The position numbers were made by a program, and so were the translations under genes. The notes under the pieces were generated by a model that was not told the DNA's origin, did no database searches, and worked only from the letters and a program-made list of their open reading frames with translations. From positions 32,001 through 96,000 of the IMG/VR virus record IMGVR_UViG_3300027668_001405: DNA of 64,000 nt; one strand, given 5' to 3'. The DNA comes from a virus. Each line of letters starts with the position of its first letter. Position 1 is the first letter of the stretch. Below are positions 25,168-45,546 of the stretch, in pieces.

Positions 25168-26592
25168 ATGGCAGAAAACAAGTTACCCTCGGATACGTTT
25201 TGTATACTACCGTGGATACATTTAAGCACAAGACCAGACGGAAGTATGCGTGTGTGTTGTACAGCTAATGCAAGTGCAGTAGGAGCAACAAATGATAAAG
25301 TACATGGCGGTCGAGTTGGAATTGTAAAAACAGATGATGGTAAACCTGCTAACTTAAACAACAGTGATTTGAATAGTGCGTGGAACAATAGTTACATGCG
25401 TGGCGTTAGACAACAAATGATGGCTGGTGAACAACCACCTAGTTGTGTAAAATGTTATAAAGAAGAAGCGGCTGGACACAGGTCTAAAAGACAGTGGGAA
25501 ACAGACTATTGGATTAAAGACGGTATCGACGTTGAAGATTTAATAAGGGAAACTTACGAAGATGGAAGTACTGATTCTAAACTACGCTATATTGATATCC
25601 GTATGGGGACGAAATGCCAGTTGGGGTGCGTTATGTGTAGCCCACATGACTCTTCAGGCTGGGTAAAAGATTGGAACAAACTATATCCACAAATTACAAA
25701 TGAATCCTTAAAAGAAACTATGAATTGGGATGCTAAAGGTAAGACCTTTGGTGCAAACTATAACTGGCACAAAAACAACCCAACGTTTTGGGATCAGTTT
25801 TATGCACAGATTCCTTATATCAGACAACTATACTTTGCTGGTGGTGAATCAACAGTTATTGAAGAACATTATTCAATCCTATCTAAAGTTATTGAGATGG
25901 GTTACGCACATCAAATTGAAGTGCGTTATAACAGTAATGGTATTGAACTACCAGATCGTTTGCTAGAGCTATGGACACACTTTGAAAAGGTACGTTTCCA
26001 TTACAGTATTGACAGCATTGGTCCAATGAATGATTATATTCGTTATCCAAGTGAATGGTCACATCAGCTAGCAATGTTTGAACGCCTAGATCAAAAGACA
26101 AGTAACAACGTAGAAATTACAATTGCGTGTGCAGTTAATGCACTTAACATTCATTACATTCCAGACTTCCTTAAATGGAAACTTCAGGATAGCGGACTTA
26201 AGAAAACAAATATGTGGCCTTTTGGAGCAGGTGGTATTAACTATCACTTTGTATACTGGCCCGGACATTTGAATGTTAAGATATTGCCAGATGAATTCCT
26301 AGACAAAACAGAAGCCAAGTATGAAGAATTTATTCAATGGTGGAAAGAGAATTGGGAGCTAGGTGTTCCAAGTTGGCATAAGGGTAAAGTAGACTATCAG
26401 AAATGGGAAGATGCTAGTTATGGTATCAAACGTTTACGTGGTATGATTAGCTTTGCTCGTAGTGAAGATTGGACACGCCGACTACCCGAGTTTAGAGAGT
26501 ATATAAACAAGTTAGATGAATTGCGTGGAACAGACTTCCGTGCAACATTCCCAGACATGGCTTACTTGCTTGATGAACCGGATGACACCTGA
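25168..26592 (+). CDS. radical SAM protein with N-terminal twitch/SPASM-like domain
   Basis: FCILPW..VCC..CVKC; CQLGCVMC; AGGE; SNG. Confidence 0.9.
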   Translation: MAENKLPSDTFCILPWIHLSTRPDGSMRVCCTANASAVGATNDKVHGGRVGIVKTDDGKPANLNNSDLNSAWNNSYMRGVRQQMMAGEQPPSCVKCYKEEAAGHRSKRQWETDYWIKDGIDVEDLIRETYEDGSTDSKLRYIDIRMGTKCQLGCVMCSPHDSSGWVKDWNKLYPQITNESLKETMNWDAKGKTFGANYNWHKNNPTFWDQFYAQIPYIRQLYFAGGESTVIEEHYSILSKVIEMGYAHQIEVRYNSNGIELPDRLLELWTHFEKVRFHYSIDSIGPMNDYIRYPSEWSHQLAMFERLDQKTSNNVEITIACAVNALNIHYIPDFLKWKLQDSGLKKTNMWPFGAGGINYHFVYWPGHLNVKILPDEFLDKTEAKYEEFIQWWKENWELGVPSWHKGKVDYQKWEDASYGIKRLRGMISFARSEDWTRRLPEFREYINKLDELRGTDFRATFPDMAYLLDEPDDT

Positions 26593-26788
26593 GGTTCGTA
26601 AAGAGGCCCATCGACGTTTTTGGATGATCAAGGGCCACTTAGCCTGTAAGGATTGGGACGATGATGCATTATACAAAATGCACGAAAGTTACTTGAAGCG
26701 TTTATGGGGTAATGAAGAAGCATACCTTTGGGAAGAAGGTTTTGAAGAAGCATACTTTAAGTTAACAAATGAACAACCATCAAACTAA
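26573..26788 (+). CDS. small aromatic/acidic protein (about 71 aa)
   Basis: In-frame ATG 26573 of ORF 26516..26788; overlaps both flanking RS genes. Confidence 0.6.
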   Translation: MNRMTPEVRKEAHRRFWMIKGHLACKDWDDDALYKMHESYLKRLWGNEEAYLWEEGFEEAYFKLTNEQPSN

Positions 26789-27980
26789 TACAGACACACA
26801 TTGCACACTGCCTTGGAGTGGTGCGGCAGTTGATGCTGGTGGCAGGGTTGTACCTTGTTGTAGATGGATGGGACCACATGGTGACTTAGACAATGCTCCT
26901 AAAATAGCTAATGGATTAGAAAACGCAAGGAACAGTAAGTTCTTTGAAACAGTACGACAAAGTATGTTAGATGGAAAACGTATTAATGGATGTAAGAAAT
27001 GTTGGGAAGAAGAAGATTTCTTTGGTCCTGAACATCAACAGCGTTGGTTACGTTTACAGCACAATCATAACATACAGGCACTGTCAGTTAATGGAGTAGC
27101 AAACATGACTACCACTGCTCCTACAAAGCTACGGTACCTAGAAACAGGTATAAGCAACCTATGTAACTTTGCTTGTGTAATGTGCAACTCTGCAACCAGC
27201 AGTACGATACACAATATAACAGTCAAAGGCAAAATGCCTAAGAGCTTCCATCAAAACAATAGCGTAATAGATTCAGACTTATCAGAGCTACAATATTTGA
27301 AATTTGTAGGTGGTGAGCCCATGATGGAACGCAAGCATGATGAATTATTAGAAAAGGTTGTTGCATTAAACAATAACCCAACATCACTAGAATTAGAGTA
27401 CCATACTAATGCAAGTATATTTCCAAGCGAGCGTGTAACTACTGCATGGAAGAAAGTAAAATCAGTAAGGATTATATTTAGTTTAGACGGTGTGTATGAG
27501 AAATCTAAACTACAGCGTCCAGGTAGATACAAATGGCAAGATGTAGAAGATACAGTACATAAATATGTACAGCTAGCAGACAAAGTTAATATTATATTCT
27601 CAAGCAATACAGTGTTGACAGCATTGAATGTTGGGCAAGTAATAGATATACTTGAATGGTTATACTCGAGAATAGGACACAAACAACTTGGGTGGTTTAA
27701 TGTACATAAACTGTTTAATGAAAGGTTTAAGTATATAGACCTACGTAATATAAGTCAAGAGAAGAAAACTATTATAAGAAAAGAGTTAACAGATTGGGCG
27801 GCAACAGGTCACCCAGCACTAGACACTCCGCTGAAATCAGTGTATAATGAGACTATAGAAGCACTAGATACACCACCTAGTGGTACATTGACTCTTAGTA
27901 GAGAGTTAATATTAGAAAAGCATTTCCAAAATGATATATGGAAGTACTTCAAAGAAGAATTAAAGGACCTAGAAATATAA
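26769..27980 (+). CDS. radical SAM protein with N-terminal twitch/SPASM-like domain
   Basis: HCTLPW..PCC..CKKC; CNFACVMC; GGEP; HTNA. Confidence 0.9.
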   Translation: MNNHQTNTDTHCTLPWSGAAVDAGGRVVPCCRWMGPHGDLDNAPKIANGLENARNSKFFETVRQSMLDGKRINGCKKCWEEEDFFGPEHQQRWLRLQHNHNIQALSVNGVANMTTTAPTKLRYLETGISNLCNFACVMCNSATSSTIHNITVKGKMPKSFHQNNSVIDSDLSELQYLKFVGGEPMMERKHDELLEKVVALNNNPTSLELEYHTNASIFPSERVTTAWKKVKSVRIIFSLDGVYEKSKLQRPGRYKWQDVEDTVHKYVQLADKVNIIFSSNTVLTALNVGQVIDILEWLYSRIGHKQLGWFNVHKLFNERFKYIDLRNISQEKKTIIRKELTDWAATGHPALDTPLKSVYNETIEALDTPPSGTLTLSRELILEKHFQNDIWKYFKEELKDLEI

Positions 27981-28516
27981 TGAAATACATTTTAGTAGCT
28001 CTAAAAGCAGAATTGCCAGAGCATAATTTAGACCCTACATCATACAAAGTATGGTATACTGGTGTTGGTAAAGTAAATGCATCTATATGGGCAACACTTG
28101 CATGCATACAAAAAGACTGTGAAGCAGTTATTAACTACGGAACAGCAGGTGCATTTAATAGTGAACTAGCAGAACAGTTACTACACATTGGTACAGTAAA
28201 GCAACGTGACATGGATACAAGGCCACAAGCAGAACTAGGTGTTACTCCGTTTGAAGACAGTGGATTTGAAGGTGACATTAAACTTAGTAATAGTGCATAT
28301 ACATGTAGCACTGGTGATAACTTTGTAACAGAGGTTCCAGAATTAGAAAGTGATTGTGTTGATATGGAAGCATATGCAATTGCTAAAGTATGTAAGCACT
28401 TCCAAAAGAATTGCATAGTTTACAAATATATTAGTGACCTAGCAGATTCAGATGCTGCGGCAACGTGGGTAGAGAATCAACACAAAGGAGCAGATGCTTT
28501 TATAGCAATGACCTAG
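27980..28516 (+). CDS. mtnN: MTA/SAH nucleosidase (PNP_UDP_1 family)
   Basis: TGVGKVNA, INYGTAG, TGDNFV, VDMEAYAIA, ISD. Confidence 0.85.
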   Translation: MKYILVALKAELPEHNLDPTSYKVWYTGVGKVNASIWATLACIQKDCEAVINYGTAGAFNSELAEQLLHIGTVKQRDMDTRPQAELGVTPFEDSGFEGDIKLSNSAYTCSTGDNFVTEVPELESDCVDMEAYAIAKVCKHFQKNCIVYKYISDLADSDAAATWVENQHKGADAFIAMT

Positions 28517-28517
28517 T

Positions 28518-29774
28518 ATGAGTGGATTTTGTTCATTACCTTTTGTACAGTACAGCACATATAACGGAGGCCGTTATAGACTTTGTTGTATGGCTAAAGA
28601 ACCAACTACACTTGTTAACCAAGAAGAGTTGGGTATTAATGGTACATGGAATCACGACTATATTAAAGATGTAAGACGTAGAATGACTGCCGGTGAGAAG
28701 TTATCCGAGTGCAGTGAATGCCATCACTTAGAACGTAATGGAATAATGAGTTCACGTCAATGGGAAAACAAAGTATGGGCAGATGTAATTGATGGAATCG
28801 TAGCAGACGCAAGTGCTAATGATTGGGAAGTTGATCAGCCATTACAGTTTGACTTTAGATTAGGAAACCTATGTAACCTACAGTGTCAGATGTGTAACAA
28901 AGAAGCATCACACTTGGTAAGCGTAGAACGTGCGGCAATGATTAAACGTGGACTAGGAGCTGACCACCCAGATTGGGAAGGACAGATTGCAAGCAAGAAA
29001 GAAGCACTTCTGCAACCTGGAATTGATTGGGTAGACTTTAAAGCCATGTTACCATATGCTCGTAAGATAAAACTAATAGGTGGCGAACCTACAGTAGCAA
29101 CAGATATGTTTAAGCTACTAGATATTGCAACAGAAAGCGGACACGCAGAACACATTGAATTAAGCTTCTACACAAATATTACAAACATGCAAGACAAGTG
29201 GCTAGCTCAGTTAGCTAAGTTTGAGAAAGTCATTGTTAACTGTTCACTAGAAGGAATGGGCGACATGAATGACTATTTGCGTCCACCTAGTAAATGGGCT
29301 AGTGTGTGGAAGAACTTTGATAAATTAGTACAGTTTGCTGATACTAAACCGGGTAAGCGTATTAAGGTACGGGTTACTACAGTAAACCAAATGACTAATG
29401 CATTGCACATAGTTCCTTTTTGGAAGTTTATGCATGATTACCAGATGACTAGTAATAGAGGCATTGGAATGAGTACCAATCAGCTAGTGGAGCCTGCTTA
29501 CTACAGCATGGCACATGCACCTGAATGGTTGAAAGAACAACAACGTGAACAGATTTTGGAATTTCTTAAGTCCATTGACAACAGCCCTCACTTTGAGCAA
29601 TATGAAGAACCACTCATGGAAGTGGTTAACTTTAGTCTTGATAGTGAGCACAAGTTTGATGCTAACATCATGCAACAATATGTCAAGGTCACCGAAAACT
29701 ACGACAGATTCAGAGGACACATGGTTACCAAAGTGTCTCCCGAATTTGAACGAATTAAAAAAGACTCCGAGTGA
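28518..29774 (+). CDS. radical SAM protein with N-terminal twitch/SPASM-like domain
   Basis: FCSLPF..LCC..CSEC; CNLQCQMC; GGEP; YTN. Confidence 0.9.
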   Translation: MSGFCSLPFVQYSTYNGGRYRLCCMAKEPTTLVNQEELGINGTWNHDYIKDVRRRMTAGEKLSECSECHHLERNGIMSSRQWENKVWADVIDGIVADASANDWEVDQPLQFDFRLGNLCNLQCQMCNKEASHLVSVERAAMIKRGLGADHPDWEGQIASKKEALLQPGIDWVDFKAMLPYARKIKLIGGEPTVATDMFKLLDIATESGHAEHIELSFYTNITNMQDKWLAQLAKFEKVIVNCSLEGMGDMNDYLRPPSKWASVWKNFDKLVQFADTKPGKRIKVRVTTVNQMTNALHIVPFWKFMHDYQMTSNRGIGMSTNQLVEPAYYSMAHAPEWLKEQQREQILEFLKSIDNSPHFEQYEEPLMEVVNFSLDSEHKFDANIMQQYVKVTENYDRFRGHMVTKVSPEFERIKKDSE

Positions 29775-29810
29775 TTACTCTTGGACATGTAAATGGAGAG
29801 TTAGATTCTA

Positions 29811-31019
29811 ATGAACTTTGGTTTTAAAAGTTATAACAGTTGGGACCCACTAAAGAAAGTATTGTTGGGTAGTACACTACCTGAGGGCTTCTTTGCAGAT
29901 TTCCCAGACCCTAAAGTAGCAGATGCTATGACTACAGTTAACGAGGAAACTCGTGAAGACTTAAACAACTTGCAATCAGTATTTGAGAGCAAGGGCATTG
30001 AAGTACATAGGATGCCAGAAGCATGTGTATTAAAGAATAGAAGGTTTAACAGTGTAGCTGAATTTATAGACATGCATGGATATATTCCTAAACCTTTTAA
30101 TGCACCAAGAGATGACCAAATCATTTTTGGAGAGCATATGATTACAGGAACATCAAATCCTGTACATAGAATATTCCATGGTACTAGAGAAGATACATTT
30201 AACATATTTGATAAAAAAGCACCCTGGGCAGGCTGTGATGATTTAATTGATATTGCAGATCCCAATCAAGAACTAAACATAATTGAAGCAGTTGGCAAAC
30301 CTAACTTTACAATGAGTTGGCCTAGTATTATGAGAGCAGGCAAGGACATTATAATTGATATACATGATTTTAATGGACCTACTAGACAGCTAGCTGAAAA
30401 CTGGGTAGACCGTTTTAATGAGAAGTTTGGTTATAAGTTTAGAATTAATACAACTACAATGGGTGGACACACTGACGCAGTAATGGCACTTGTTAAACCT
30501 GGGCTTATAATAAGTCATGTTAATGTAAACAAGTATGAAGAAACATTTCCAGGTTGGGATGTAATTAAAATAGATAGAACACACAACGATCATACAGTAG
30601 CTTGGAACGAATTCCGTATCTCAGAAAAAGATAAATGGAGAGGTAACAAACTAAATCCAGTAGCAGATTATTGGATTGCAGGACAAGAACACAACGTAGC
30701 ATTGAATAAATTTATTGACTTATACATGCACCCTAGCGTTGGCAGTTGTTTTGAAACAAACTTTGATGTAAACTGTGTAAGCATAGACGCTAATACAGTA
30801 GTTGCAAGTGGACCTAGTAAAGTGTTAGAAGATAAGCTAGGCAAGCACAACGTAGATGTAATTACGTCTAACATGAGGCACAGATTCTTTTGGGATGGTG
30901 GCTTACATTGTGCTACAGTTGATTTATACCGTGAAGGCGAGATGGAAGATTACTTTCCTGAACGCAGTGCAGGAGTTGATTTTGGTAAAGTGTGGGGCAA
31001 TAACGAAACACGCCGGTAA
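29811..31019 (+). CDS. amidinotransferase (AGAT/StrB1-like pentein fold)
   Basis: SWDPLKKV, APRDD, GGHTD, DGGLHCAT (Asp-His-Cys triad). Confidence 0.85.
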   Translation: MNFGFKSYNSWDPLKKVLLGSTLPEGFFADFPDPKVADAMTTVNEETREDLNNLQSVFESKGIEVHRMPEACVLKNRRFNSVAEFIDMHGYIPKPFNAPRDDQIIFGEHMITGTSNPVHRIFHGTREDTFNIFDKKAPWAGCDDLIDIADPNQELNIIEAVGKPNFTMSWPSIMRAGKDIIIDIHDFNGPTRQLAENWVDRFNEKFGYKFRINTTTMGGHTDAVMALVKPGLIISHVNVNKYEETFPGWDVIKIDRTHNDHTVAWNEFRISEKDKWRGNKLNPVADYWIAGQEHNVALNKFIDLYMHPSVGSCFETNFDVNCVSIDANTVVASGPSKVLEDKLGKHNVDVITSNMRHRFFWDGGLHCATVDLYREGEMEDYFPERSAGVDFGKVWGNNETRR

Positions 31020-31027
31020 ATTAATTG

Positions 31028-31035
31028 CATAAATA
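31028..31035 (+). promoter_or_regulatory. late promoter motif CATAAATA
   Basis: Intergenic inside the RS cluster, before RBS AAGGA. Confidence 0.5.
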
Positions 31036-31066
31036 TAATTATCAACGCATATAATAAAGGAAAACA

Positions 31067-31945
31067 ATGACTCGCATAGCTAAAGATATTACAGCAGGCA
31101 AGGACTTCATAGTCCATGTATTCGATGCATCTGAAGTTGACGTCAACGACAATTATAGATTATACGAAGCGTTTGAAAGTGGATGGCCTGTAGTTATTAA
31201 GAACTATAAAATAGAAGGACTTGATTACGATTACTATGATAATTTACCAGACTGGAATATTACAGATAACAAATGGGTAATGCCCTGGTACAATAGTCAT
31301 ATTAAGGCTCGTGACAGACTACGTAACGAGCGTGACTGGAGTGAAGATGAAATAGATTTGTTCCATAAAAAGCACAAACAATCAAACAAGGCATGGACTG
31401 ATAGTTTCGATAATATGTTTCCACAGTATAACACGACTGAGAAAATGCTCAGTCACAGGTACAATACATTAGTAGAGAACAAACTACACTTAGACGAGCT
31501 GGACGAACAGCATACTGGTAATGAACAGCAAATGCGTATGTTTGTACAGCTAGATAAAAAACGTCCTAGAGTATTATCATTTGGTCCTGACTTGGAAAAA
31601 ATGTACAATGATTACAAAGATGAGTTTAACTTGGGTGAGATTGACAAAAGCAATACACACAAATTTATAACTGAGATGCGTGATCGTTGTGTATGGAACG
31701 ACAAGGCTTGGGACCAGTTTCATCACCCACTACATTACATAACGTTTGATCCAGGTGACATTTGGTTCTTTAATGCACAATGGATTACACATCAAATTGT
31801 GTTTGGTACTAAGCTACAATGCTTTGAATGTGATATTCAAAACGATAGCTTACTACACCCAGAGTGGGCAATGAAGCAAAGAATACAAACTTTAGATAAC
31901 AACGACAATTCAGCATGGGGCGGTACTACCGTCAGCATGGAATAA
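31067..31945 (+). CDS. Fe(II)/2OG oxygenase, Kdo hydroxylase (KdoO)-like
   Basis: SHRY..NKLHLD, MRMFVQLD..PRV, FDPGDIWF..HQIVFG match the KdoO-family layout (recollection). Confidence 0.6.
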   Translation: MTRIAKDITAGKDFIVHVFDASEVDVNDNYRLYEAFESGWPVVIKNYKIEGLDYDYYDNLPDWNITDNKWVMPWYNSHIKARDRLRNERDWSEDEIDLFHKKHKQSNKAWTDSFDNMFPQYNTTEKMLSHRYNTLVENKLHLDELDEQHTGNEQQMRMFVQLDKKRPRVLSFGPDLEKMYNDYKDEFNLGEIDKSNTHKFITEMRDRCVWNDKAWDQFHHPLHYITFDPGDIWFFNAQWITHQIVFGTKLQCFECDIQNDSLLHPEWAMKQRIQTLDNNDNSAWGGTTVSME

Positions 31946-31957
31946 CAAGGAATAATA

Positions 31958-33025
31958 ATGAATAAACCAGTAAACGCATGGAGCGAGTTTCAACCATTAC
32001 GAAAAGTAATGCTTGGTGCTCCATTTCCACCTGAAACATTTGATTGGCATAAGGACGAAGAAACTCGTCGTGTAATGCGACAGATTTTTGAAGAAACAGC
32101 AGAGGACATAGAAGTGCTGTCGGGGATATTAAAGGACAAAGGCATCGAAGTGGTGCGTCCTAAGAATATATTTACAATCACAGGTGAAGAGCAGATTCAA
32201 TTACCTTGGATGCATTGCGGATTTCCAAATCATCCGTTAATGCCTAGGGATACGTTAATGCCTTATGGCAATACAATATTTGAACTGTTTACAGGTAGCG
32301 ATAATCGCTACTTTGAGAATCTGGCCTACTACGATCATTGTTCGCAATGGTTTAGAGAAGGTGCAGGTTGGGTTAGTATGCCAGGAGTACTAGTAGAAAG
32401 TGGTAAGAAGTACGACCACTTTGTTAAAAACAATCGAGTACTATATCATGCGGCTAACATGATTAAGTGCGGAAGTCACGTTTTGTTTAGCCAACCCTAT
32501 GAGGGAGACAACAAACGTGGCAGAGGTACGGAGCTGGGCCGTGAATGGATTCAACGTGAAATAAAGTTGCGATATCCTAATACCAAATTTTTGGACATTC
32601 CAGTAGGAGGACATATCGATGGCAAAATAGCACTACTAAAACCTGGCGTACTAATGACTTGGAATAAGAACTGGGTTCCAGAAGAAATGAAACACTGGCA
32701 CATTATAGAAGTGGCTGATGAATTTGATATGCCACAGGATTTTCAACAAACTCGTAAACAACGTTTCCATAAAGATTATGTAAGCAAGTGGCTTAGTCAT
32801 TGGGTAGGTTGCCCAGACGAAAGTGTGTTTGACGTAAACGTATTATCACTAGATGAAAATACAGTTATATGCACAGGTAAAAATGAGGCCGCTTTTGCTG
32901 AGATGGAAGCACATGGTATCGAACCAATTTACTGGAACTTTAGACACCAGTATTTTTGGGACGGTGGCATACATTGTTTAACAAGTGATATTGTTCGAGA
33001 AGGCGAGTGTGAGGACTATATCTAA
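31958..33025 (+). CDS. amidinotransferase (AGAT/StrB1-like), second paralog
   Basis: SEFQPLRKV, MPRD, GGHIDG, DGGIHCLT. Confidence 0.87.
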   Translation: MNKPVNAWSEFQPLRKVMLGAPFPPETFDWHKDEETRRVMRQIFEETAEDIEVLSGILKDKGIEVVRPKNIFTITGEEQIQLPWMHCGFPNHPLMPRDTLMPYGNTIFELFTGSDNRYFENLAYYDHCSQWFREGAGWVSMPGVLVESGKKYDHFVKNNRVLYHAANMIKCGSHVLFSQPYEGDNKRGRGTELGREWIQREIKLRYPNTKFLDIPVGGHIDGKIALLKPGVLMTWNKNWVPEEMKHWHIIEVADEFDMPQDFQQTRKQRFHKDYVSKWLSHWVGCPDESVFDVNVLSLDENTVICTGKNEAAFAEMEAHGIEPIYWNFRHQYFWDGGIHCLTSDIVREGECEDYI

Positions 33026-34072
33026 ATGCATTGGGCCAGACAAGTACATAATTTACAATTAGATATTTCTAGTCATTGTAATGCGGCTTGTGGTGCTTGT
33101 GTACGAAATAAAGATGGAGGAATAACAGAACCTCAACTAAGTCTAGATAATTTTGATGTTGCGTTATGGAAGCGTTTAGCATCAGAAGACACACGTGGCT
33201 GGTATGTAACTAAATTAACATTGAATGGTAATTGGGGTGATCCAATGATGCATCCAGATTTGATTGAGATGTTAGAAATATGGAATTATCATCACCCAGA
33301 ATCTTCGTTGTTTATTGCAACAAATGGAAGTATGCGAAGCAAACAGTTTTGGTTAGATCTTGCTAGAGTTTCTAGACAGTTTCCAAATTCTAAAGTTGAC
33401 TTTGCAGTTGATGGGTTAGCGGATACACATCATTTATATAGAAGAAAAACTATATTCTCTAAGCTAATAGAAAACATAAAACATTTTACAAGTGCCCAAG
33501 GCAATGCATGTATGATGATGACTGTGTTCAAACATAATCAACATCAAATTGAAGATGTAAGAGCATTAGCCGAAGAAACAAAGTGTAGGACATTTGTAGC
33601 AAGACGCAGTCACAGTGACGACATGCACATTAAAACTGATACTGAAGACTACACAATGTATGCTGGAGATACTAAGCAGTACAAGCAACAAACAAGATTT
33701 GATCAAGGTTGGAACAATAGTGATATCCGTGATGCTAGTGTGTATGGTCAAATTAACGAGCAATTTGATACACTATATGAATTTGCAGAGGATAGCAAGT
33801 GTCCTTGGTATAAGGATCAAGAAATACAAATAGACCCTTGGGGTGTTGTATGGCCTTGTTGTCATATAAGTCTACTAGGCGTAGATTTGGATAAACATAC
33901 ATTGACAGATTCAGCAGATAATAGTATAATAGAAGCTAGGAAGTCTAATAACTTGCACAACTATAGTCTGACTGAAGTACTATATAACGAATGGTTCTCA
34001 ACTACTGTACCGAATGCAGTAGAGAATGCATCGTGGCAGATATGTAGAAATAATTGCGGAGTATGTAAATAA
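33026..34072 (+). CDS. radical SAM protein with C-terminal SPASM/twitch domain
   Basis: CNAACGAC, GNWGDP, ATNGS; KCP..WPCC..CRNNC. Confidence 0.9.
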   Translation: MHWARQVHNLQLDISSHCNAACGACVRNKDGGITEPQLSLDNFDVALWKRLASEDTRGWYVTKLTLNGNWGDPMMHPDLIEMLEIWNYHHPESSLFIATNGSMRSKQFWLDLARVSRQFPNSKVDFAVDGLADTHHLYRRKTIFSKLIENIKHFTSAQGNACMMMTVFKHNQHQIEDVRALAEETKCRTFVARRSHSDDMHIKTDTEDYTMYAGDTKQYKQQTRFDQGWNNSDIRDASVYGQINEQFDTLYEFAEDSKCPWYKDQEIQIDPWGVVWPCCHISLLGVDLDKHTLTDSADNSIIEARKSNNLHNYSLTEVLYNEWFSTTVPNAVENASWQICRNNCGVCK

Positions 34073-35325
34073 TGTATAACAACCCAATGTTAAATGATTC
34101 AAGATATCCAACGTGCTTGGCACCTTGGAATGCTCTTACGATCAAATGGGGTGGAGCAGTACTTCCTGATATTATATACAATGGCAAGTTTGGAAACATT
34201 ACAAGACAAACGCTACCAGAGATATTAAACAGTGACGAAGCAGTTGCATTACGTAAGTCGCATGCAAGTAGAATTATTCCACCTGCGTGTTTAGCATGTA
34301 CTAAGAAAGAGAAAAGTGGTAAGAGTCGTAGAATGTATTTCTGGGACAAACTAGATGTAGATGTTAAAAAGGGCAGTATTAAAAATACAGCTAACAGTAA
34401 GCCAGACATACGTTACTTAGATTTTACTATCAGTAATAAATGTAACCTAGCATGTATACATTGTAATCCATTTGTAAGTACAGGCTGGACTAAAGATGGT
34501 AAAAAGTTAAATAAAGAAAAGCCGGACTATTGGGAACAATCACCTATTGGTTATCATGGCGTTGAAGATATGACGTTTTTGGATAACTTGTTTGCTGACC
34601 CTGAATACTTTCGTAACCTACAATGGGTTGCGTTAAGAGGAGGAGAGCCATTGTATGACGAGAGTTGTAAAGCAATCCTACAATGGTTTATTGACCAAGG
34701 GCTAGCTAAGAACATTATGCTAGATATCAGTACAAATGCTACAGTGTTTGACAATGACTTCCAAGAGATATTTAAGCACTTTAAACACATTGAGCTACTT
34801 ATTAGTATTGAAGCAGTAGACGAACTGTACAGCGTTGTACGTGGAGGTAAGACTACCTCATTTGAGCAACTAGAAGATAACATTGAAAAGTTTTATACAT
34901 ACGATAACATTGAAGTTGTGTTTGCCGTTACAGTAATGATTACAAATATATTTGGATTAGATAAAGTATGGAATTGGTTTAAAGAAAAGCATATGCACAG
35001 AGCTAGTATTAGCATGAGCAATGTTGTAGTTAACCCAGCCTATCTTAATATTGCATATATGCCAGATGTACTAAAATGGATTATGCATGACAAGTTACTA
35101 CAGATACCAGATCAAAGTATTTGGCCTAAGGGTAGCTATCATTCAGATGAGATACATTATCAAACTGGTATCCATGCTATACGTGATGGATTGCAAGTTG
35201 AAGTAGATGAAGAACTACAAGAAAAGCAATGGAGTCATTTTGTTAAATATACTAAAGACCTTGATAGATTACGAGGCACAGATACATTTAAATTAATTAA
35301 GGAATTAGCTTTATACAATGAATAA
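34072..35325 (+). CDS. radical SAM protein with a degenerate N-terminal twitch domain
   Basis: TCLAPW..LPDII (no CC)..CLAC; CNLACIHC; GGEP; STNA. Confidence 0.88.
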   Translation: MYNNPMLNDSRYPTCLAPWNALTIKWGGAVLPDIIYNGKFGNITRQTLPEILNSDEAVALRKSHASRIIPPACLACTKKEKSGKSRRMYFWDKLDVDVKKGSIKNTANSKPDIRYLDFTISNKCNLACIHCNPFVSTGWTKDGKKLNKEKPDYWEQSPIGYHGVEDMTFLDNLFADPEYFRNLQWVALRGGEPLYDESCKAILQWFIDQGLAKNIMLDISTNATVFDNDFQEIFKHFKHIELLISIEAVDELYSVVRGGKTTSFEQLEDNIEKFYTYDNIEVVFAVTVMITNIFGLDKVWNWFKEKHMHRASISMSNVVVNPAYLNIAYMPDVLKWIMHDKLLQIPDQSIWPKGSYHSDEIHYQTGIHAIRDGLQVEVDEELQEKQWSHFVKYTKDLDRLRGTDTFKLIKELALYNE

Positions 35326-36265
35326 AATACAATATGGCACAATGGATAAGCCATTATCAATTAATAATCCAGACTTTACAAAAACAGGAAACAGTGTATG
35401 GAATCAACAGTACATGGAATACCTGACAGAAAATTACTTTCCTAATATTGATCCTGCTACACTGCCACAAGAACAAGATACATTCTTAGCAAACTATCCA
35501 AAATGGATTGCTAGTAGTAAGCTGAACAAGTTCAAAGGACTAGATGCATTTAAGCACAGGTTTGTTAGCTTAGGTGTAACACAGGCACTTGACTATTGGC
35601 ACTATTGGTGTCAAGCTAATGGATATAACTTAAAAGTATATAGAGGTGAGTACCCGTACAATAGAGATGCACAAATTAATAACCCAATGGAATGGGGAGA
35701 TAGCATTGATGACATTCCACTACAAAAAGGTGACGCAGTAATAGTAAGTGTTCCGTTTAGTGGTACAGGTAAAAAACCAGAGCATTGGCAAAAACTAATT
35801 AATACATGCAACGACCTTGACATTCCAGTGTTTGTTGATTGTGCATGGTTTGGTACATGTTTTGGTATTGAAATAAACTTAAATGAAGAATGCATTAAGA
35901 TGGTTGCATTTAGTACTACCAAAGGATTAAGTTGTGGAAACTGGCGCAGTGGAATTACTTTCAGTAGAGAAAATAAAGGAAGCCTGGCAGTACAAACAGA
36001 ATGGTATCATGGGATACATCTTAACTTAGCTATTGCTAATAGTTTAATGAAGGAATTTAGTCCTGACACTATTGCAAAGAAATACAAAGAAGCACACGTA
36101 GCAGTATGTGAGCATTATGGGTTTGAAACAACAAATACAGTACACATTGGTATAGCACCCGCAGGCCCAGATTGGGATGCGTATCATAGAGATGGTACTT
36201 ACAATAGAATTAATATTGCTAAAGCAATAAAGCGTTACAAAAACAAAGGCAACTTTTATGAGTGA
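35318..36265 (+). CDS. PLP-dependent fold-type I enzyme (aminotransferase-like)
   Basis: VFVDCAW (PLP Asp), FSTTKGL (Schiff-base Lys), R.G. Confidence 0.7.
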   Translation: MNKIQYGTMDKPLSINNPDFTKTGNSVWNQQYMEYLTENYFPNIDPATLPQEQDTFLANYPKWIASSKLNKFKGLDAFKHRFVSLGVTQALDYWHYWCQANGYNLKVYRGEYPYNRDAQINNPMEWGDSIDDIPLQKGDAVIVSVPFSGTGKKPEHWQKLINTCNDLDIPVFVDCAWFGTCFGIEINLNEECIKMVAFSTTKGLSCGNWRSGITFSRENKGSLAVQTEWYHGIHLNLAIANSLMKEFSPDTIAKKYKEAHVAVCEHYGFETTNTVHIGIAPAGPDWDAYHRDGTYNRINIAKAIKRYKNKGNFYE

Positions 36266-36710
36266 TAAACCTATTAATATTACTACATCTAGATCTAATG
36301 ATTTTCCGATAAGAGCTAATTATATGTTTGACAACATTGGCCCAGGAAATTGTGAAGATATTATTTGGCAAAATGTAGTAGATACAGTAGGCGAAATTGA
36401 ACAGAATGAAATTGGTGTAGGTGTAACTCAAAGTTATCAGTACACAAAATTACATGACAAACCAATTATTTTAACAAAATGGCAAGGTATGAAAACAGCT
36501 AATGGACCCGAGTTTAGAATTGGATTAGGAAAAGGCATACCAGGTAGTAAACAAACTCCACCTATAATGTCTGGAAACTTTAAAACGGGTGTTCAAGTTA
36601 ATAGTACACTATCAATACAATCAGTTAAACTAGGCAGTAGACAAGGTAAGTTTTGTATTCAAACAGATGGTAAATGGTATGCTATTCAAATAGGAGATCA
36701 AGTTGAATAA
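36258..36710 (+). CDS. hypothetical protein
   Basis: 150 aa coupled ORF. Confidence 0.65.
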   Translation: MSDKPINITTSRSNDFPIRANYMFDNIGPGNCEDIIWQNVVDTVGEIEQNEIGVGVTQSYQYTKLHDKPIILTKWQGMKTANGPEFRIGLGKGIPGSKQTPPIMSGNFKTGVQVNSTLSIQSVKLGSRQGKFCIQTDGKWYAIQIGDQVE

Positions 36711-37836
36711 ACTACCTGACAATGCATGTGCATATCCTTTTAAGGCAAGTATGTTGATGCATGGTCAACCGGCAACACCTTGTTGCAGATTTCATACTAG
36801 GTTTCTTAAAGGCAATGGGTTTACTGAAATACGTGAAACAATGATGCGTAATGAATGGCATCCAGGATGTTACAAATGTAAGTCAGATGAAGAAGTTAAA
36901 GGTAGCAGTATGAGAACTGAAGCTGACGAATTCTTTGATGACTTTGATGACGTAGTACGTTTAGAGTACTTAGAAATAACTGTAGGCAGACTTTGTAATT
37001 TAGCATGTCTAAGTTGTGGTAGTGATTTTAGTACTACATGGGATAAAGATGAACTTGCATTAGGCATTAGTTCACCAGAGAAGATTAGCAAATTAAAAGA
37101 AGTACAGGAATACGATTTAGATAACATGGACCTAGATAATTTAAAACATATTAAGTTTATAAAAGTAACTGGTGGAGAACCGTTCTTGCATAAGCAGTTT
37201 TTAAATTTACTAACTAGACTAGCAGACAGTGGATTAGCTAAACAAATAGACATAGAAATATTTACAAATTGTACATACTATCCAGAGAAGAAGCTAGAGC
37301 TTGATAGCTTACTAGCGTTCAAACTAATACACATAAGTCCTAGTATTGATGGATATGGAACTACAAACGACCTCTTAAGATACCCTTCTAAGTGGAATAA
37401 AATTGAGGCAACACTTGACAAGTGGATAGAGCTAAAAGTAGCTACAGGACGCTTACACATAGCCACAGCCACCACTGTAAGCGTTATTAACGCCCCACAG
37501 CTACATGAGTTCATACATTGGGCGAGAATACATAAAGGAATAGATGTCGTGTTACAGACGGTATTTGAGCCACATTATTTAAGCGTAGAGCATTGGCCAA
37601 ATTGGTTCAAGCGTACACTAAAGTTAACAATTGATCAACAGTACACAGGCTTTAATAAGAACGCAGGTAAGTTTAAAGCTAGTCATAAACTATTAAAACA
37701 GTTATGTGAAACAAATACTACAACAGATAAGAGTGTACAATACGTAATAGAATTAAAGAAGATGCTGTCACATAGAGGGCAAGATATTAACATGGCACCT
37801 AAGTTTGCTAAGATATTGGAGTATCATGAAAGATAA
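36703..37836 (+). CDS. radical SAM protein with N-terminal twitch/SPASM-like domain
   Basis: ACAYPF..PCC..CYKC; CNLACLSC; GGEP; FTN; TTG start. Confidence 0.88.
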   Translation: MNKLPDNACAYPFKASMLMHGQPATPCCRFHTRFLKGNGFTEIRETMMRNEWHPGCYKCKSDEEVKGSSMRTEADEFFDDFDDVVRLEYLEITVGRLCNLACLSCGSDFSTTWDKDELALGISSPEKISKLKEVQEYDLDNMDLDNLKHIKFIKVTGGEPFLHKQFLNLLTRLADSGLAKQIDIEIFTNCTYYPEKKLELDSLLAFKLIHISPSIDGYGTTNDLLRYPSKWNKIEATLDKWIELKVATGRLHIATATTVSVINAPQLHEFIHWARIHKGIDVVLQTVFEPHYLSVEHWPNWFKRTLKLTIDQQYTGFNKNAGKFKASHKLLKQLCETNTTTDKSVQYVIELKKMLSHRGQDINMAPKFAKILEYHER

Positions 37837-39061
37837 TAAAGAATTAAAAAAGAGTGAGACATTCTGTATGTTACCATTTATGCATATATATGGAACAGCA
37901 GGTGGCGACTTAGTGCCGTGCTGTGAAGCACAGGAAACTCCATTAAACAACCCAGGCGAGACAGCTCTAGAAAGTTGGAACAACGACAACTACAAAGAAC
38001 TAAGACGTGCTTTATCAAATGACGAAAGACCAGATCGCTGTGAAGTGTGCTGGCACAATGAGGACAGTGGAGTAGTAAGCAATCGCAAGCAATGGGAAGA
38101 CGACAATTGGGAAACGTTTTCTAATGAGATAGAAGTTAATGACGATTGGAGTGTTAACAATTCACCTAAGTGGGTGGAACTAAAAGTAAGTAATTTTTGC
38201 AACCTAAAATGTATTATGTGCAGTACGCATAGTAGTTACAAGCGTGTTAAAGACTTAGACATTATAAGCAAGTACACAGCAGATGGATATGAAACTAGAC
38301 TTTTACGCCCAACTACTTTATTTGCAAGTTTAAATGAATGGCCCGAGTTATGGGAAAATGTTCATACACTACAATTTACAGGTGGAGAACCAATTATTAA
38401 CCAAGAGCATTATGACTTGCTTGAAGGGATACCTAAAGACATACGAAAGAATATAAAGTTACGTTACGCTACAAACCTAAGCATGATTAAGTTTAAGAAA
38501 TATGACTTAGTAGAAATATGGAACGAGTTTGCCGCTGTAAATATTAAAGTAAGCATGGACGGCATCGAAGACGTGTACAATTATATTAGACAAGATGGTG
38601 ATTGGGATACAGTATATGCTAACATGCTAGTACTGAGCAGTGAACCTACAATTAATTTAGCAGTAGGCATTACAGTACAATCACATAACGTATTTCATAT
38701 GCCAGAGTTTTATGACTTCTGGGCAGACAATATAGTTAAGCTAGATTTTATTACAGCTAACGTATTACACACACCTAAGTATTTAAGTCCAGCACTTTGG
38801 CCTGCTAACGTTAGGAAGCCTATAGTTGATAAGTTAAAAGAAGCATTGCCCAGACACCCAGAAATGAGAAAGTTTATTACTTACATGTTAAGAAATAAAC
38901 CAAATGCATTGAACTATTCAAAGATGCGTAAGTATACCAGAGATTTAGAAGCACGATATCCTAAAGAAATTACATTAAAAAGTATGCTTAAAAAGTATCT
39001 TAAAATAAAACTAGAAGGCATGGACATAGTTGATGAGAGGTTGAAGAATGAAAAAAGGTGA
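37826..39061 (+). CDS. radical SAM protein with N-terminal twitch/SPASM-like domain
   Basis: FCMLPF..PCC..CEVC; CNLKCIMC; GGEP; ATN. Confidence 0.9.
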   Translation: MKDNKELKKSETFCMLPFMHIYGTAGGDLVPCCEAQETPLNNPGETALESWNNDNYKELRRALSNDERPDRCEVCWHNEDSGVVSNRKQWEDDNWETFSNEIEVNDDWSVNNSPKWVELKVSNFCNLKCIMCSTHSSYKRVKDLDIISKYTADGYETRLLRPTTLFASLNEWPELWENVHTLQFTGGEPIINQEHYDLLEGIPKDIRKNIKLRYATNLSMIKFKKYDLVEIWNEFAAVNIKVSMDGIEDVYNYIRQDGDWDTVYANMLVLSSEPTINLAVGITVQSHNVFHMPEFYDFWADNIVKLDFITANVLHTPKYLSPALWPANVRKPIVDKLKEALPRHPEMRKFITYMLRNKPNALNYSKMRKYTRDLEARYPKEITLKSMLKKYLKIKLEGMDIVDERLKNEKR

Positions 39062-40334
39062 AAAGGATTGGGACTATCAATTTGTAAGTGATTGCGAAAT
39101 TGTGAATGTCTTTATTCCTAAGAATACTCACCTATCAGGTCACGAAGAATTAAAACAAAAGCTATTGTTATTACAGCAAGTTGAGTGTGATAATCACTTG
39201 ACATCAAGCATAGTTAACCTGTATAATACAAGTAGTATTGAGTGGATTGAACACGTTAGAAAAATGGGACACAAGTATGTTGCATTTTGGTTTGATGGCT
39301 GCTGGCCTAAATCAGATGGCATTGAAAAGAAAATACTAACATACATTAATAGACTTGAGAAGAAAGATTGGGTAACCGCAGTGCATCCAAAGTACTTGGA
39401 TAGTTTAATGTTATTGAACATTGACGAGTTTATTGCTTGGCCTGCTAAAGCACCTAACTTTGGAACATACGCATTTTGGGCAGAGAATTGGATTAGTGAT
39501 TGTACTGTAGAGTTAAGCAAAACTATAGAAAGAAACATTGTAGTTGGTGCTCCACAATCAGACCCACAGAACTTTTTAAATGGATTAATGGATAAGAAGT
39601 ATACAGACCACACAATATCCAGAGGCGCTAGAGTTATTATTAAACGTAAGAATATACCTAGCAGTCCTATATACTTTGTTAACACAGAACGCAGTAGCCC
39701 AACAGTAGCAGATGCAATAAAACACACAGTATTCAAGCAGTATGTAGGCGCAGTGGCTGGTTTTAAGCTTCTATACTACGCTTACACGTACGGTATTGAT
39801 ATAGACAGCACTAAGTTCGTCTGGTATGATTTCGACGCAAACAGCGTACAATTTAAGCGTGACACTATTAAAAATTGGGATGGAAATGACTATCCTACAT
39901 GGGTTAAGGAATGGGTACACGCACATCCAGAAGCAAATGCAGAATTACTAAAACACGTTGATAAAGAATGGTTAAATATAGTAAAGCAATTCGGCGGAAA
40001 GCAACAGTGGTTAGACTTCTGGGTTCAAGTACAGATGTGTGAACATGAGTTTCTTACTGTTGACTTAGTTAATAATCACAAGGAAATAACAGACAGATTA
40101 GTTAATGGTGCAAGTACATTCTTTTGGAGCAGTAACATATACAGCTATGTATTGCTAAAAGTAATAAGCAAACCATTTACATTAGAACGCAGTTTTGCAG
40201 AGTTAATCACAAGGCTACAACAAATAGAAACATGTTGGTTCTCAGGCACTGATCCCAATGACAACGATTTAACATGTGATGTTAAATGGATTCTAGGATA
40301 CAGTACTAATGACAGCATAGGAACAGGAATATGA
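39048..40334 (+). CDS. hypothetical protein, paralog of 40331..41713
   Basis: Shared VNTE, WYDF and WDGNDY segments. Confidence 0.7.
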   Translation: MKKGEKDWDYQFVSDCEIVNVFIPKNTHLSGHEELKQKLLLLQQVECDNHLTSSIVNLYNTSSIEWIEHVRKMGHKYVAFWFDGCWPKSDGIEKKILTYINRLEKKDWVTAVHPKYLDSLMLLNIDEFIAWPAKAPNFGTYAFWAENWISDCTVELSKTIERNIVVGAPQSDPQNFLNGLMDKKYTDHTISRGARVIIKRKNIPSSPIYFVNTERSSPTVADAIKHTVFKQYVGAVAGFKLLYYAYTYGIDIDSTKFVWYDFDANSVQFKRDTIKNWDGNDYPTWVKEWVHAHPEANAELLKHVDKEWLNIVKQFGGKQQWLDFWVQVQMCEHEFLTVDLVNNHKEITDRLVNGASTFFWSSNIYSYVLLKVISKPFTLERSFAELITRLQQIETCWFSGTDPNDNDLTCDVKWILGYSTNDSIGTGI

Positions 40335-41713
40335 AATTAAACGTAAGAGACAATAAAGAGATATGCCACATAACACTAGATGAGCTTGTATGCCCAGAAC
40401 TAGATAGTGCATCTAATGATTACATATCAGTACTAAAGCATGTTACAAATATTAGTATTGTTAACACTGGAAATTCGTCATACATAATTAATGCAAAGCA
40501 AGAGCATCTAAATGATATATTTGCAGATTTAAAATCATTTGGATACAGGCTAGCAGTACTATGGGCAGAAGGAAATATGATTGATGAAGATTTAGATGCT
40601 GATTTAATTACGTGTGCAAATGAATGGGACGACAGTGAATGGGCAACAGCAGGTCATATACTTGATAGAAAGAATAACATGTATCCTACGTTTCATAATC
40701 AATGTGTAGTAATTAATTTAAAGACTGCAACGTACCTTAATCCAAAAGGCATAGTAAATGACTATGTAGCATCAAGTGAACATATGCATGATGACTACAC
40801 TCCAACCTGGATTAAAGGAGTATCAGATAGAATACCAAACAGCAGTGTAGAAAGCTATAATGTGTTTGACATGCTAATGAGAATGTCAATTAATAACGAA
40901 CAGCTAATATACAACTTGCCATTTAATGTACGAAAGAAAAAGATATGTGTGTACCCTGAAGATGATATACAATGGGCACAAGAAGCTATCTTTGAAGATT
41001 ACAGTAAGTTAACTGAACAACAAGCAATGGCTAAAATTTACGACATTCGAGATAACTATCCAGATAAGAAACCTTTGTTTGATTTTAAGGTAATGGAGCA
41101 TGCAGTTGTATACATAACTAATACAGAAGATGTACCACCGAGAAAGGACAGCCAAATAAACGTAGGTGTGTTTCCATGTAGTGGAATACATCAATTTAAG
41201 CATATTGCAAATAACATTAATACAATGGAAAAAGTAATATGGGCAGACTTTAGTACATACGCAATTAATTGGATGACAATAGTTGTAAATGAATGGAACG
41301 GTCAAGACTTTACTAAGTTCTACAAGGACAACATACACAGAATTAATTTTGCTGGCAATGCAGAATTTGACGAAGATTTAGTAGTACAGTTTTACGAAAG
41401 TTTTGCTGACAATGAATGGCTTGCAGTGTGGCATAAAATACAAAGTTTAGATCACGTGTTTCTAAAAGTCAATCTAATAGAACAATACGATATGGTGTTA
41501 CACCATATACCAAAGAATAAGAACGTATTACTGCAATGTAGTAACATATGGTTATACGAAGAAAATTACATTAACCGTGGATTCAAAGCCACCCACGCAG
41601 TACTTGATTATATTAAGCTAGCGTTAGATAAGTCCAACAAAGTTATATTTGTGGGCGATGCTAATGGTACGTTTTATGATTTAACAAACATAGGGAGAAA
41701 CAAATGGATATAG
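40331..41713 (+). CDS. hypothetical protein, paralog of 39048..40334
   Basis: Shared TNTE, WADF and WNGQDF segments. Confidence 0.7.
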   Translation: MKLNVRDNKEICHITLDELVCPELDSASNDYISVLKHVTNISIVNTGNSSYIINAKQEHLNDIFADLKSFGYRLAVLWAEGNMIDEDLDADLITCANEWDDSEWATAGHILDRKNNMYPTFHNQCVVINLKTATYLNPKGIVNDYVASSEHMHDDYTPTWIKGVSDRIPNSSVESYNVFDMLMRMSINNEQLIYNLPFNVRKKKICVYPEDDIQWAQEAIFEDYSKLTEQQAMAKIYDIRDNYPDKKPLFDFKVMEHAVVYITNTEDVPPRKDSQINVGVFPCSGIHQFKHIANNINTMEKVIWADFSTYAINWMTIVVNEWNGQDFTKFYKDNIHRINFAGNAEFDEDLVVQFYESFADNEWLAVWHKIQSLDHVFLKVNLIEQYDMVLHHIPKNKNVLLQCSNIWLYEENYINRGFKATHAVLDYIKLALDKSNKVIFVGDANGTFYDLTNIGRNKWI

Positions 41714-42564: not shown

Positions 42565-42566
42565 TT

Positions 42567-44838: not shown

Positions 44839-44856
44839 TAGAAAGGGGAGAACAAC

Positions 44857-45537
44857 ATGGAATATTTAGATATATTAAAAAATAGAAGTACTACGTTCAG
44901 CTGGACAACCGAGATGATTCCAGATGATGTGCTACTTGAAGTATGTGAAGAAGTACATTTATATTGCCCAAGTAAGAATAAGAAAATACCTTATGTAGTT
45001 CATATAGTTGAAAATACAGAGCAAGAACAACGCAAAACAATACACTTAGCTTGTCATCGAAATACTGATAAATCTACAGCAGAAGATGGCGGCAATCCAC
45101 AAGTATTAGCTCCTACCCTAATAGCATTTGTTAAACGTGAGGTTGAAGAAGCAGAAACAAGATACCAAACAATTGAGAAACGTGACGAACTAGGTACTGC
45201 TAATACAGACAATATTGAAATTGGAATGGTTGCAGTAACATTTTTAAATGCACTTACTAGACGAGGATGGGATACAGGATTATGTCAATGTATAAGAGAC
45301 AGAGACGGACTTGGAGCCTTGTTAGGTTTAGGCGGCCCAATAGATTTGTTTATTGGAGTAGGTAGACGAGAGTTAGAATCTACTGAAGGTGCTGTAACAG
45401 AAAAAGTATTTGATGAATTTCATTGGCCAGCTTATAGAGATCCAAGAGATGACTTAATGAAGAAAATTCCATATCCGTATGGAATGAATCCGTATCCAAA
45501 ACCGGAATTCAATGACGTATATAAAATTAAAAAGTAA
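44857..45537 (+). CDS. nitroreductase-family flavoprotein
   Basis: LKNRSTTFSW, CPSKN, QVLAP, GWDTGLC. Confidence 0.7.
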   Translation: MEYLDILKNRSTTFSWTTEMIPDDVLLEVCEEVHLYCPSKNKKIPYVVHIVENTEQEQRKTIHLACHRNTDKSTAEDGGNPQVLAPTLIAFVKREVEEAETRYQTIEKRDELGTANTDNIEIGMVAVTFLNALTRRGWDTGLCQCIRDRDGLGALLGLGGPIDLFIGVGRRELESTEGAVTEKVFDEFHWPAYRDPRDDLMKKIPYPYGMNPYPKPEFNDVYKIKK

Positions 45538-45546
45538 AGACACACT

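Follow-up and report, generated by a model that had tools for sequence, protein, structure and literature searches.

Phage-borne groups of radical SAM genes that include an amidinotransferase gene have been described previously. Campylobacter phages CP220 and CPt10 carry radical SAM genes and a 'putative glycine amidinotransferase' in an exchangeable module with no known function (Timms et al. 2010, PMC2853527). In CP220 this homologue lies among the radical SAM genes together with two nucleotide-diphospho-sugar-transferase-like genes (PMC2853527), and in cyanophage S-SCSM2R an amidinotransferase homologue adjoins kdsA/kdsB, 2OG oxygenases and many glycosyltransferases (PMC12801897); both neighbourhoods hint at a sugar. 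Literature searches returned no work on the function of pentein amidinotransferases from phages. The streptidine pathway, in which such an enzyme (StrB1) acts, consists of a dehydrogenase, the StsC aminotransferase, a kinase and StrB1, and is run twice.

The locus described here lies in a window of 64,000 nucleotides (positions 32,001 to 96,000 of IMG/VR record IMGVR_UViG_3300027668_001405) from a fragment of a marine jumbo phage. Its three ORFs lie precisely at the predicted coordinates, are all on the + strand and each possess their own RBS-like purine tract: P0001 (29811..31019, 402 aa), P0002 (31067..31945, 292 aa) and P0003 (31958..33025, 355 aa). The order P0001-P0002-P0003 was reproduced by contigs from two DNA sequencing runs, one contig spanning all three genes. 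Contigs from RNA libraries also cover the three genes, and one of them spans the P0001/P0002 junction; they were not considered as proof of expression, because DNA carry-over is possible. One RNA-library contig shows a gap of 315 nt inside P0002 (31393 to 31709, with a short side of 27 nt), which is probably an assembly artefact. A megablast comparison of a 20-kb part of the cluster with GenBank phages gave no match, and NCBIfam and PHROGs assigned no function to P0001, P0002 or P0003 (the sole PHROGs result being the unnamed phrog_25854).

P0003 aligns over nearly its full length with amidinotransferases of solved structure (HsvA, 5wpi, E 9e-26; StrB1, 1bwd, 1e-18; SxtG, 6u1r, 2e-18; AGAT, 1e-13). 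The matches of P0001 to the same enzymes are weaker, ranging from 5e-5 to 1e-2 (SxtG 5e-5, AGAT 1e-4, StrB1 1e-4), and the two phage proteins align with each other from end to end (25% identity, E 9e-34). In Pfam, P0003 reached 15.9 bits against PF02274, below the cut-off of 22.8, and P0001 had no match. Judged by this homology, P0001 and P0003 belong to the AGAT/StrB1/HsvA/SxtG family of pentein-fold amidinotransferases. Three motifs are invariant across 30-35 homologues: PRD (P0001 99-101, P0003 96-98), GGHxD (218-222 and 217-221, respectively) and GG(L/I)HC (363-367 and 336-340). The putative nucleophile is C367 in P0001 and C340 in P0003, which follow H366 and H339, respectively, and both cysteines are invariant in the alignments, as are the residues presumed to provide the catalytic His and the guanidino-binding Asp (H220/D222 with D101, after R100, in P0001; H219/D221 with D98, after R97, in P0003). 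By analogy with the solved enzymes, both proteins would be expected to form a covalent Cys-amidino intermediate and to transfer the amidino group from arginine by a ping-pong mechanism. We assume that both are active and that they catalyse transfer rather than hydrolysis.

One catalytic position, not mentioned in the original prediction, departs from the solved enzymes. The canonical triad Asp, found in the FDAAD/FDAAN motif of HsvA, StrB1 and SxtG, is replaced in HMMER alignments by His164 in P0003 (YHAAN) and by Ser169 in P0001 (MSWPS). This Asp reportedly pairs with the catalytic His and corresponds to Asp254 in the numbering of human AGAT. In the alignment, members of the P0003 clade typically have His at this position, and D, E, T, S, G or A are found in the wider family of P0001. 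The replacement of the triad Asp by His across an entire conserved clade constitutes a small, testable question of pentein enzymology.

For P0002, no direct Pfam match was obtained, and its assignment comes from structure prediction and remote homologues. The best Foldseek match of the AlphaFold model (pLDDT 83) was KdoO (E 1.2e-9, TM 0.57), and VIA-align superimposed the two with Z 18.5 and an rmsd of 4.2 over 245 of 292 residues, the next fold scoring Z 11.4. Four of ten remote profile hits of the P0002 family exceeded the 25-bit cut-off for PF11004 (Kdo_hydroxy), with 50.6 (P0383), 45.7 (P0390), 39 (P0373) and 25.1 bits (P0364). Across 31 homologues H141-x-D143 and H242 do not vary; they would be the equivalents of the KdoO iron ligands. 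P0002 is thus predicted to be a KdoO-family Fe(II)/2-oxoglutarate dioxygenase. Neither kdsA nor kdsB was found in the 138-kb fragment, an absence that says little because the fragment is rated as about 40% complete by CheckV and the T4 gp23 families, searched as a control, gave no match there either. These results agree with the original prediction for the three genes, which had placed two amidinotransferases around a KdoO-like oxygenase and described the former as divergent pentein enzymes with intact motifs: the ORFs, the family matches, the mutual identity and motif conservation of the two enzymes, and the fold, remote PF11004 hits and HxD...H triad of the middle gene all confirmed it.

The three genes are embedded in a co-directional cluster (25168..53062, + strand) that contains about 16 radical SAM genes, mostly of NCBIfam family NF033640 (N_Twi_rSAM, twitch domain-containing radical SAM protein), as well as a nitroreductase-like gene and an Asp/Asn-hydroxylase-like gene (41704-42564). 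NF033640 is a named family without an assigned reaction that is expanded in Bdellovibrionia, and literature searches for it returned nothing. Eight of ten scanned radical SAM genes of the window (w25168, w26769, w28518, w34072, w36703, w37805, w43588 and w46103) scored 213-419 bits against this model, for a cut-off of 170. Upstream of P0001, an MTA/SAH-type nucleosidase (27938..28516, + strand), which likely disposes of the 5'-deoxyadenosine produced by radical SAM enzymes, is followed by the N-twitch radical SAM gene w28518 (28518..29774, + strand). Downstream of P0003 are found, all on the + strand, a radical SAM gene lacking the N-terminal twitch domain (33026..34072; 42-53% identity in close relatives, duplicated in some of them), the N-terminal-twitch radical SAM gene w34072 (34072..35325; 250 bits against NF033640) and w35318 (35318..36265), which encodes a short fold-type-I PLP enzyme. 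The latter resembles class I/II aminotransferases and has an invariant Schiff-base lysine (Lys202) and an invariant Asp174; its structural matches, at Z of about 20, are all of class I/II type, with no DegT-type enzyme among the matches listed. Sequence searches of w35318 and two radical SAM proteins against the PDB gave no useful match, and w39048 fell only into uncharacterised viral clusters in the ESM Atlas.

Gene neighbourhoods were compared among loci related to this region. P0003, w34072 and w35318 are kept together in phage relatives (77-91% identity), in a second phage group (49%) and in loci from MAGs of Bdellovibrionales and Pseudobdellovibrionaceae (37-46%), one of which is on a 916-kb contig. 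A KdoO-like gene adjoins P0003 in all close relatives and also in three of the Bdellovibrionia loci. The conserved module therefore consists of P0003, w34072 and w35318, usually with a KdoO-like gene, and occurs in marine phages and in Bdellovibrionia chromosomes. The oxygenase gene differs in orientation: in each of the 14 informative close relatives it is encoded on the other strand, so that co-transcription of P0002 and P0003 is not a conserved feature, and inverted repeats that would explain the switch were not found on either side of P0002. In a sample of 151 Bdellovibrionia genomes, 46 carry the N-twitch radical SAM family and there are three P0003 hits, each inside an N-twitch radical SAM cluster; amidination is thus an optional tailoring step.

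P0001 is distributed differently. Its homologue is absent from 7 of the 14 informative close relatives, from the phage group at 49% identity and from all Bdellovibrionia loci. A quick tree places P0001 and P0003 in deeply separated clades, that of P0001 comprising more than 1300 homologues (the P0003 family numbers roughly 150 proteins), which are also found outside radical SAM clusters, as on a phage-like contig where the homologue lies beside ribonucleotide reductase and tail-fibre-like genes. P0001 is an accessory gene in a variable cassette slot whose upstream edge is w28518, and not a fixed pathway step. The doubly guanidinylated, streptidine-like product proposed in the original prediction is consequently unsupported as a conserved feature, since the presence of P0001 is variable. 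The proposal that the PLP enzyme supplies the acceptor amine fared better: this enzyme is a conserved partner of P0003, which makes its amine a reasonable acceptor, but among the matches listed it is class I/II-like rather than StsC/DegT-like. A suggested link to 7-deazaguanine chemistry via QueE found no support, the module being present in bacterial chromosomes with no deazaguanine gene among the scanned neighbours.

We consider it about an even chance (probability of roughly 0.5) that the module is a tailoring branch that oxidises, transaminates and amidinates a sugar-like scaffold, with P0003 as the resident amidinotransferase and P0001 as a strain-specific extra. A radical SAM or Fe/2OG enzyme would oxidise a C-H or C-OH of the substrate to a carbonyl, which the PLP enzyme w35318 would transaminate to a primary amine. 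Cys340 of P0003 would then accept the amidino group of L-arginine, forming an isothiourea and releasing ornithine, and P0003 would hand the group on to this amine to give a guanidino group. P0002 may hydroxylate the same scaffold. P0001, from its different and much larger phage-associated clade, could carry out an additional, strain-specific amidination or have a separate free amine as its target. The scaffold would most likely be a sugar or sugar-acid small molecule, or a glycan precursor, this substrate class being the weakest step of the scheme. The nearest fold of P0002, KdoO at the Z score given above, hints at a sugar; no glycosyltransferase was found within the cluster in this window, which counts against one, as does the resemblance of the PLP enzyme to amino-acid rather than sugar aminotransferases among the matches listed. 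A broader version of the scheme is doubtful: marine jumbo phages and Bdellovibrio-like predators would share a previously undescribed pathway that guanidinylates a sugar-type scaffold by means of N-twitch radical SAM enzymes, a minimal PLP aminotransferase of class I and an amidinotransferase with an atypical Cys-His centre, in which His replaces the triad Asp. In the present phage lineage, P0001 would lead to a doubly guanidinylated, strongly cationic product on the virion, on the envelope of the host or on packaged DNA.

The cluster could instead mature a ribosomal peptide or a protein of the virion or cell, side-chain amines of Lys/Orn or Dap type being converted to homoarginine- or arginine-like residues while the Asp/Asn-hydroxylase-like and KdoO-like oxygenases hydroxylate residues. 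Of the named relatives of the twitch/SPASM radical SAM proteins, the nearest are indeed mostly peptide maturases (with weak scores), genes of the Asp/Asn beta-hydroxylase family are found in both the phage and the bacterial clusters, and the window has subtilase, trypsin-like and DUF2201 peptidase genes further upstream. These proteases are, however, outside the gene set common with the bacterial loci, no small, conserved ORF resembling a precursor, with a core that is repeated or rich in Cys/Lys, is conspicuous among the short ORFs, and a peptide would be an unusual substrate for a class-I aminotransferase. To our knowledge there is no precedent for a peptide-directed pentein amidinotransferase, and none was found in the literature; peptide tailoring is considered as unlikely. 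A slightly lower likelihood is given to independent metabolism, in which P0001, and possibly P0003, would use arginine to form a free guanidino product, such as guanidinoacetate, homoarginine or an amidinated polyamine, with no link to the radical SAM chemistry. For P0001 this agrees with its dispensability in relatives, the size of its clade and its occurrence on a contig without the radical SAM cluster. For P0003 the best solved match is HsvA, which is said in the paper on its structure to amidinate polyamines, but among the bacteria searched P0003 is found in N-twitch radical SAM clusters only (3/3), and its two neighbours stay the same across identities from 91% to 37%.

Hydrolysis would fit the replacement of the canonical triad Asp in both proteins, and pentein hydrolases and transferases share the Cys/His/Asp core that binds guanidino groups; the sole Pfam signal, moreover, is a sub-threshold match to a model named ADI. 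All significant matches to solved structures are nevertheless full-length matches to amidinotransferases, with no hydrolase among them, and it is improbable that P0001 and P0003 are deiminases or amidinohydrolases that, like ADI, DDAH or agmatine deiminase, act on a guanidino substrate. More improbable still is a role in DNA or nucleotide hypermodification, where an amino-bearing modified base in phage DNA (a preQ1-like 7-deazaguanine or an aminoalkyl pyrimidine) would be guanidinylated. Thymidine hypermodification involves radical SAM and PLP enzymes, and a modified guanine reportedly occurs in Campylobacter phages that carry the radical SAM/amidinotransferase module. In Bdellovibrionia, on the other hand, the module is chromosomal and lies beside kinase and hydroxylase genes, and no transglycosylase was detected among the scanned neighbours. 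The known archaeosine-type enzymes also belong to other families (references in PMC10516641).

Radical-SAM-rich islands are among the largest unexplained enzyme-gene blocks of marine phages, and the amidinotransferase is one of the few cluster members with a predictable reaction (+42.02 Da from arginine), so that mass spectrometry or the feeding of labelled arginine offers a practical way to the product. Because Bdellovibrionia chromosomes carry the module too, a bench system may be within reach, provided that a carrier strain can be grown.

The preferred reading, a tailoring branch built around P0003, can be set against the described systems as follows. With HsvA (5wpi), StrB1 (1bwd), SxtG (6u1r) and AGAT (1jdw), P0001 and P0003 have in common full-length homology, the PRD Asp, the HxD His/Asp and the HC nucleophile; they differ by an identity of about 25% or less, by the missing triad Asp and by a conserved helical insertion before the FDVN strand, to which the P0001 clade adds another insertion and a conserved C-terminal tail. 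KdoO (the Kdo 3-hydroxylase of LPS; 5y9i/5yka; PF11004) is the best structural match of P0002, which has a putative HxD...H iron triad as well, but identity is only 15-18% and no Kdo or lipid A genes are nearby; the substrate need not be Kdo. The streptidine pathway follows the logic proposed here, in which oxidation, transamination and amidination convert a hydroxyl to a guanidino group, whereas in the phage the second amidinotransferase is only variably present among relatives, the PLP matches listed are not of StsC/DegT type and no inositol or kinase genes were identified. In CP220/CPt10, the amidinotransferase is only about 24% identical, glycosyltransferase-like genes are present that are not found here, no KdoO-like gene is annotated, and the CP220 radical SAM proteins seem, from the lengths annotated and a Cys-rich feature at the C-terminus, to be shorter and of a type other than N-twitch; what these phages and the present one have in common is that several radical SAM genes form a block together with a pentein amidinotransferase.

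The three genes lie exactly at the positions of the original prediction, all on the + strand: P0001 (29811-31019, 402 aa), P0002 (31067-31945, 292 aa) and P0003 (31958-33025, 355 aa). This gene order was reproduced by contigs from two DNA runs, one of which spans all three genes, and P0001-P0003 were also covered by contigs from two RNA libraries, for which DNA carry-over is a possible source. P0003 gave full-length matches to the solved amidinotransferases HsvA, StrB1, SxtG and AGAT (E 9e-26 to 1e-13), matches of P0001 to the same four were weak, and the two proteins aligned with each other end to end (25% identity, E 9e-34); neither reached the threshold of Pfam PF02274. The PRD Arg/Asp, the HxD His/Asp, one Asn, two more His, the nucleophilic Cys and a subsequent Asp and Arg were invariant across alignments of 30-35 homologues, so that the amidinotransferase motifs named beforehand are real and conserved. 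At the level of sequence, both proteins are thus established members of the family, with the predicted residues for covalent catalysis intact.

A departure that had been overlooked concerns the triad Asp (canonical FDAAD/FDAAN). According to the alignments, this position is occupied by His164 in P0003, a residue typical of its entire clade including the bacterial members, and by Ser169 in P0001, with D, E, T, S, G or A across the wider P0001 family. A quick ML tree separated P0001 from P0003 at its deepest split, which had full support; the side of P0003 also holds three homologues with a canonical FDAAN-type Asp and without the insertion. The P0001 clade comprises more than 1,300 matches, and its conserved C-terminal tail (30960-31019, YFPER...FG..WGN.E.RR) is absent in P0003 and in the canonical amidinotransferases.

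P0002 had no Pfam match, and its predicted model (pLDDT 83) placed the Kdo hydroxylase KdoO far ahead of every other fold (Foldseek E 1e-9, TM 0.57; VIA-align Z 18.5, next fold 11.4). Its profile search returned 112 representative clusters, with 4 of the 10 scanned passing Pfam Kdo_hydroxy, and H141-x-D143 and H242 were invariant in the homologues; the designation as a KdoO-like oxygenase was therefore correct for both family and fold. Comparison of 31067-31945 with related loci L001-L013, L018 and L020 showed that each of the 14 close phage relatives covering the region has a homologue immediately upstream of P0003, on the opposite strand (divergent), while in this genome, unlike its relatives, P0002 is co-directional with the cluster. 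Inverted repeats flanking P0002 were looked for and not found. One RNA-library contig joins the two ends of 31393-31709, skipping 315 nt of P0002; its shorter side spans 27 nt, and the join is probably an artefact.

The IMG/VR record measures 137.8 kb with a completeness of ~40% (CheckV) and is therefore a fragment of a jumbo phage; viral contigs carrying relatives reach 256 kb, and many marine metagenome runs contain nearly identical sequence. Genes from 25168 to 53062 all run in one direction and include ~16 radical SAM genes, of which 8 of the 10 scanned passed the cut-off (170 bits) of NF033640, the NCBIfam "twitch domain-containing radical SAM protein" family, whose auxiliary-cluster domain is N-terminal. 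An MTA/SAH-type nucleosidase gene inside the cluster (27938-28516) and a SAM synthetase gene upstream of it (9521-10615) are consistent with phage-encoded support of heavy radical SAM turnover, with predicted roles that would fit 5'-deoxyadenosine removal and SAM supply, respectively.

P0001 homologues were found in 7 of the 14 close phage relatives (41-86% identity, with varying copy number and position), and none was found in a second phage group (P0003 49% identical) or in nine Bdellovibrionales/Pseudobdellovibrionaceae MAG loci (P0003 37-46% identical), one of them on a 916-kb contig. The slot from the radical SAM gene w28518 to the KdoO-like gene (28518-31945), compared with L004, L008, L010 and L011, consists of variable cassettes containing, depending on the relative, 0, 1 or 2 P0001-like genes, a nitroreductase-like gene, a small radical SAM gene or an unassigned 470-aa ORF. 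The proposal of two amidinotransferases that flank the oxygenase and give a doubly guanidinylated product thus holds for its gene families and is weakened by this conservation and context.

The linkage of P0003 with a radical SAM enzyme, a PLP aminotransferase-like enzyme and the KdoO-like dioxygenase is conserved. The PLP gene w35318 (35318-36265) was kept beside P0003 in 8/8 bacterial loci long enough to judge and the N-twitch radical SAM gene w34072 in 6/8; the 49% phage group keeps both. Bacterial loci also carry homologues of w37805, w43588, w39048/w40331 and the Asp/Asn-hydroxylase-like w41704, and three of them a KdoO-like gene. NF033640 was present in 46 of 151 sampled Bdellovibrionia genomes (cut-off passed in 0/14 control genomes), and a P0003 query detected homologues in 3 of the 151, every one inside an N-twitch radical SAM cluster. 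The Bdellovibrionia MAG G001, behind locus L026, has 19 NF033640 genes, 13 of them within ~30 kb around its P0003 homologue (contig C1, ~745-775 kb).

L036, a phage-like contig binned as a Legionellales MAG, carries a P0001-clade gene without the radical SAM cluster, near genes for both ribonucleotide reductase subunits, a tail-fibre-like protein (Mtd_N plus pectate-lyase-like domain) and a Rieske-type oxygenase; the contig resembles phage DNA that was assigned to a bacterial MAG at binning. A gene resembling the alpha subunit of Rieske-type ring-hydroxylating oxygenases recurs close to amidinotransferase genes in two phage settings that are unrelated to each other (54852-55934, - strand, and L036 15536-16678).

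The PLP partner w35318 (315 aa) has an invariant FS(T/L)(T/S)KGL lysine and VDxAxxG aspartate, and its predicted model (pLDDT 86) matched class I/II fold-type-I PLP enzymes at Z ~20, including aminotransferases, C-S lyases and ACC synthases, with no single best match. The enzyme is aminotransferase-like, with no clear sign that it belongs to the sugar (DegT/StsC) type. The module would oxidise, transaminate and then amidinate its substrate, P0003 moving the arginine amidino group via Cys340 onto the amine formed by the PLP enzyme. Our favoured guess for the substrate is a sugar or sugar-acid scaffold, because the nearest fold of P0002 is Kdo hydroxylase and because twitch-domain enzymes such as BtrN take small carbohydrate-like molecules. 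It is also favoured because distant phage amidinotransferase homologues adjoin sugar-related genes, namely kdsA/kdsB, 2OG oxygenases and glycosyltransferases in cyanophage S-SCSM2R (PMC12801897) and sugar-transferase-like genes in Campylobacter phage CP220. The alternatives to be weighed against this reading of the module are, in order, peptide tailoring, synthesis of a free guanidino metabolite (especially by P0001), hydrolase activity of the amidinotransferase-family proteins, and DNA modification. The suggested link to 7-deazaguanine gains nothing from conservation, because the module occurs in bacterial chromosomes and no deazaguanine gene was seen among its scanned neighbours there.

Exchangeable blocks with five radical SAM genes and a putative glycine amidinotransferase were described in Campylobacter phages (Timms et al. 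2010, PMC2853527), Nishimura et al. (2017, PMC5332604) reported a T4-like marine genome containing 12 radical SAM genes, and a 2025 cyanophage paper grouped amidinotransferase, PLP enzyme and radical SAM as "antibiotic synthesis genes" (PMC12801897). The literature search found no experimental test of module function, and the present form is a variant of an already recognised, uncharacterised module. What is new here is the second, accessory amidinotransferase, the co-oriented KdoO-like gene and the apparent lack, judged from alignments, of the canonical triad Asp in both amidinotransferase clades.
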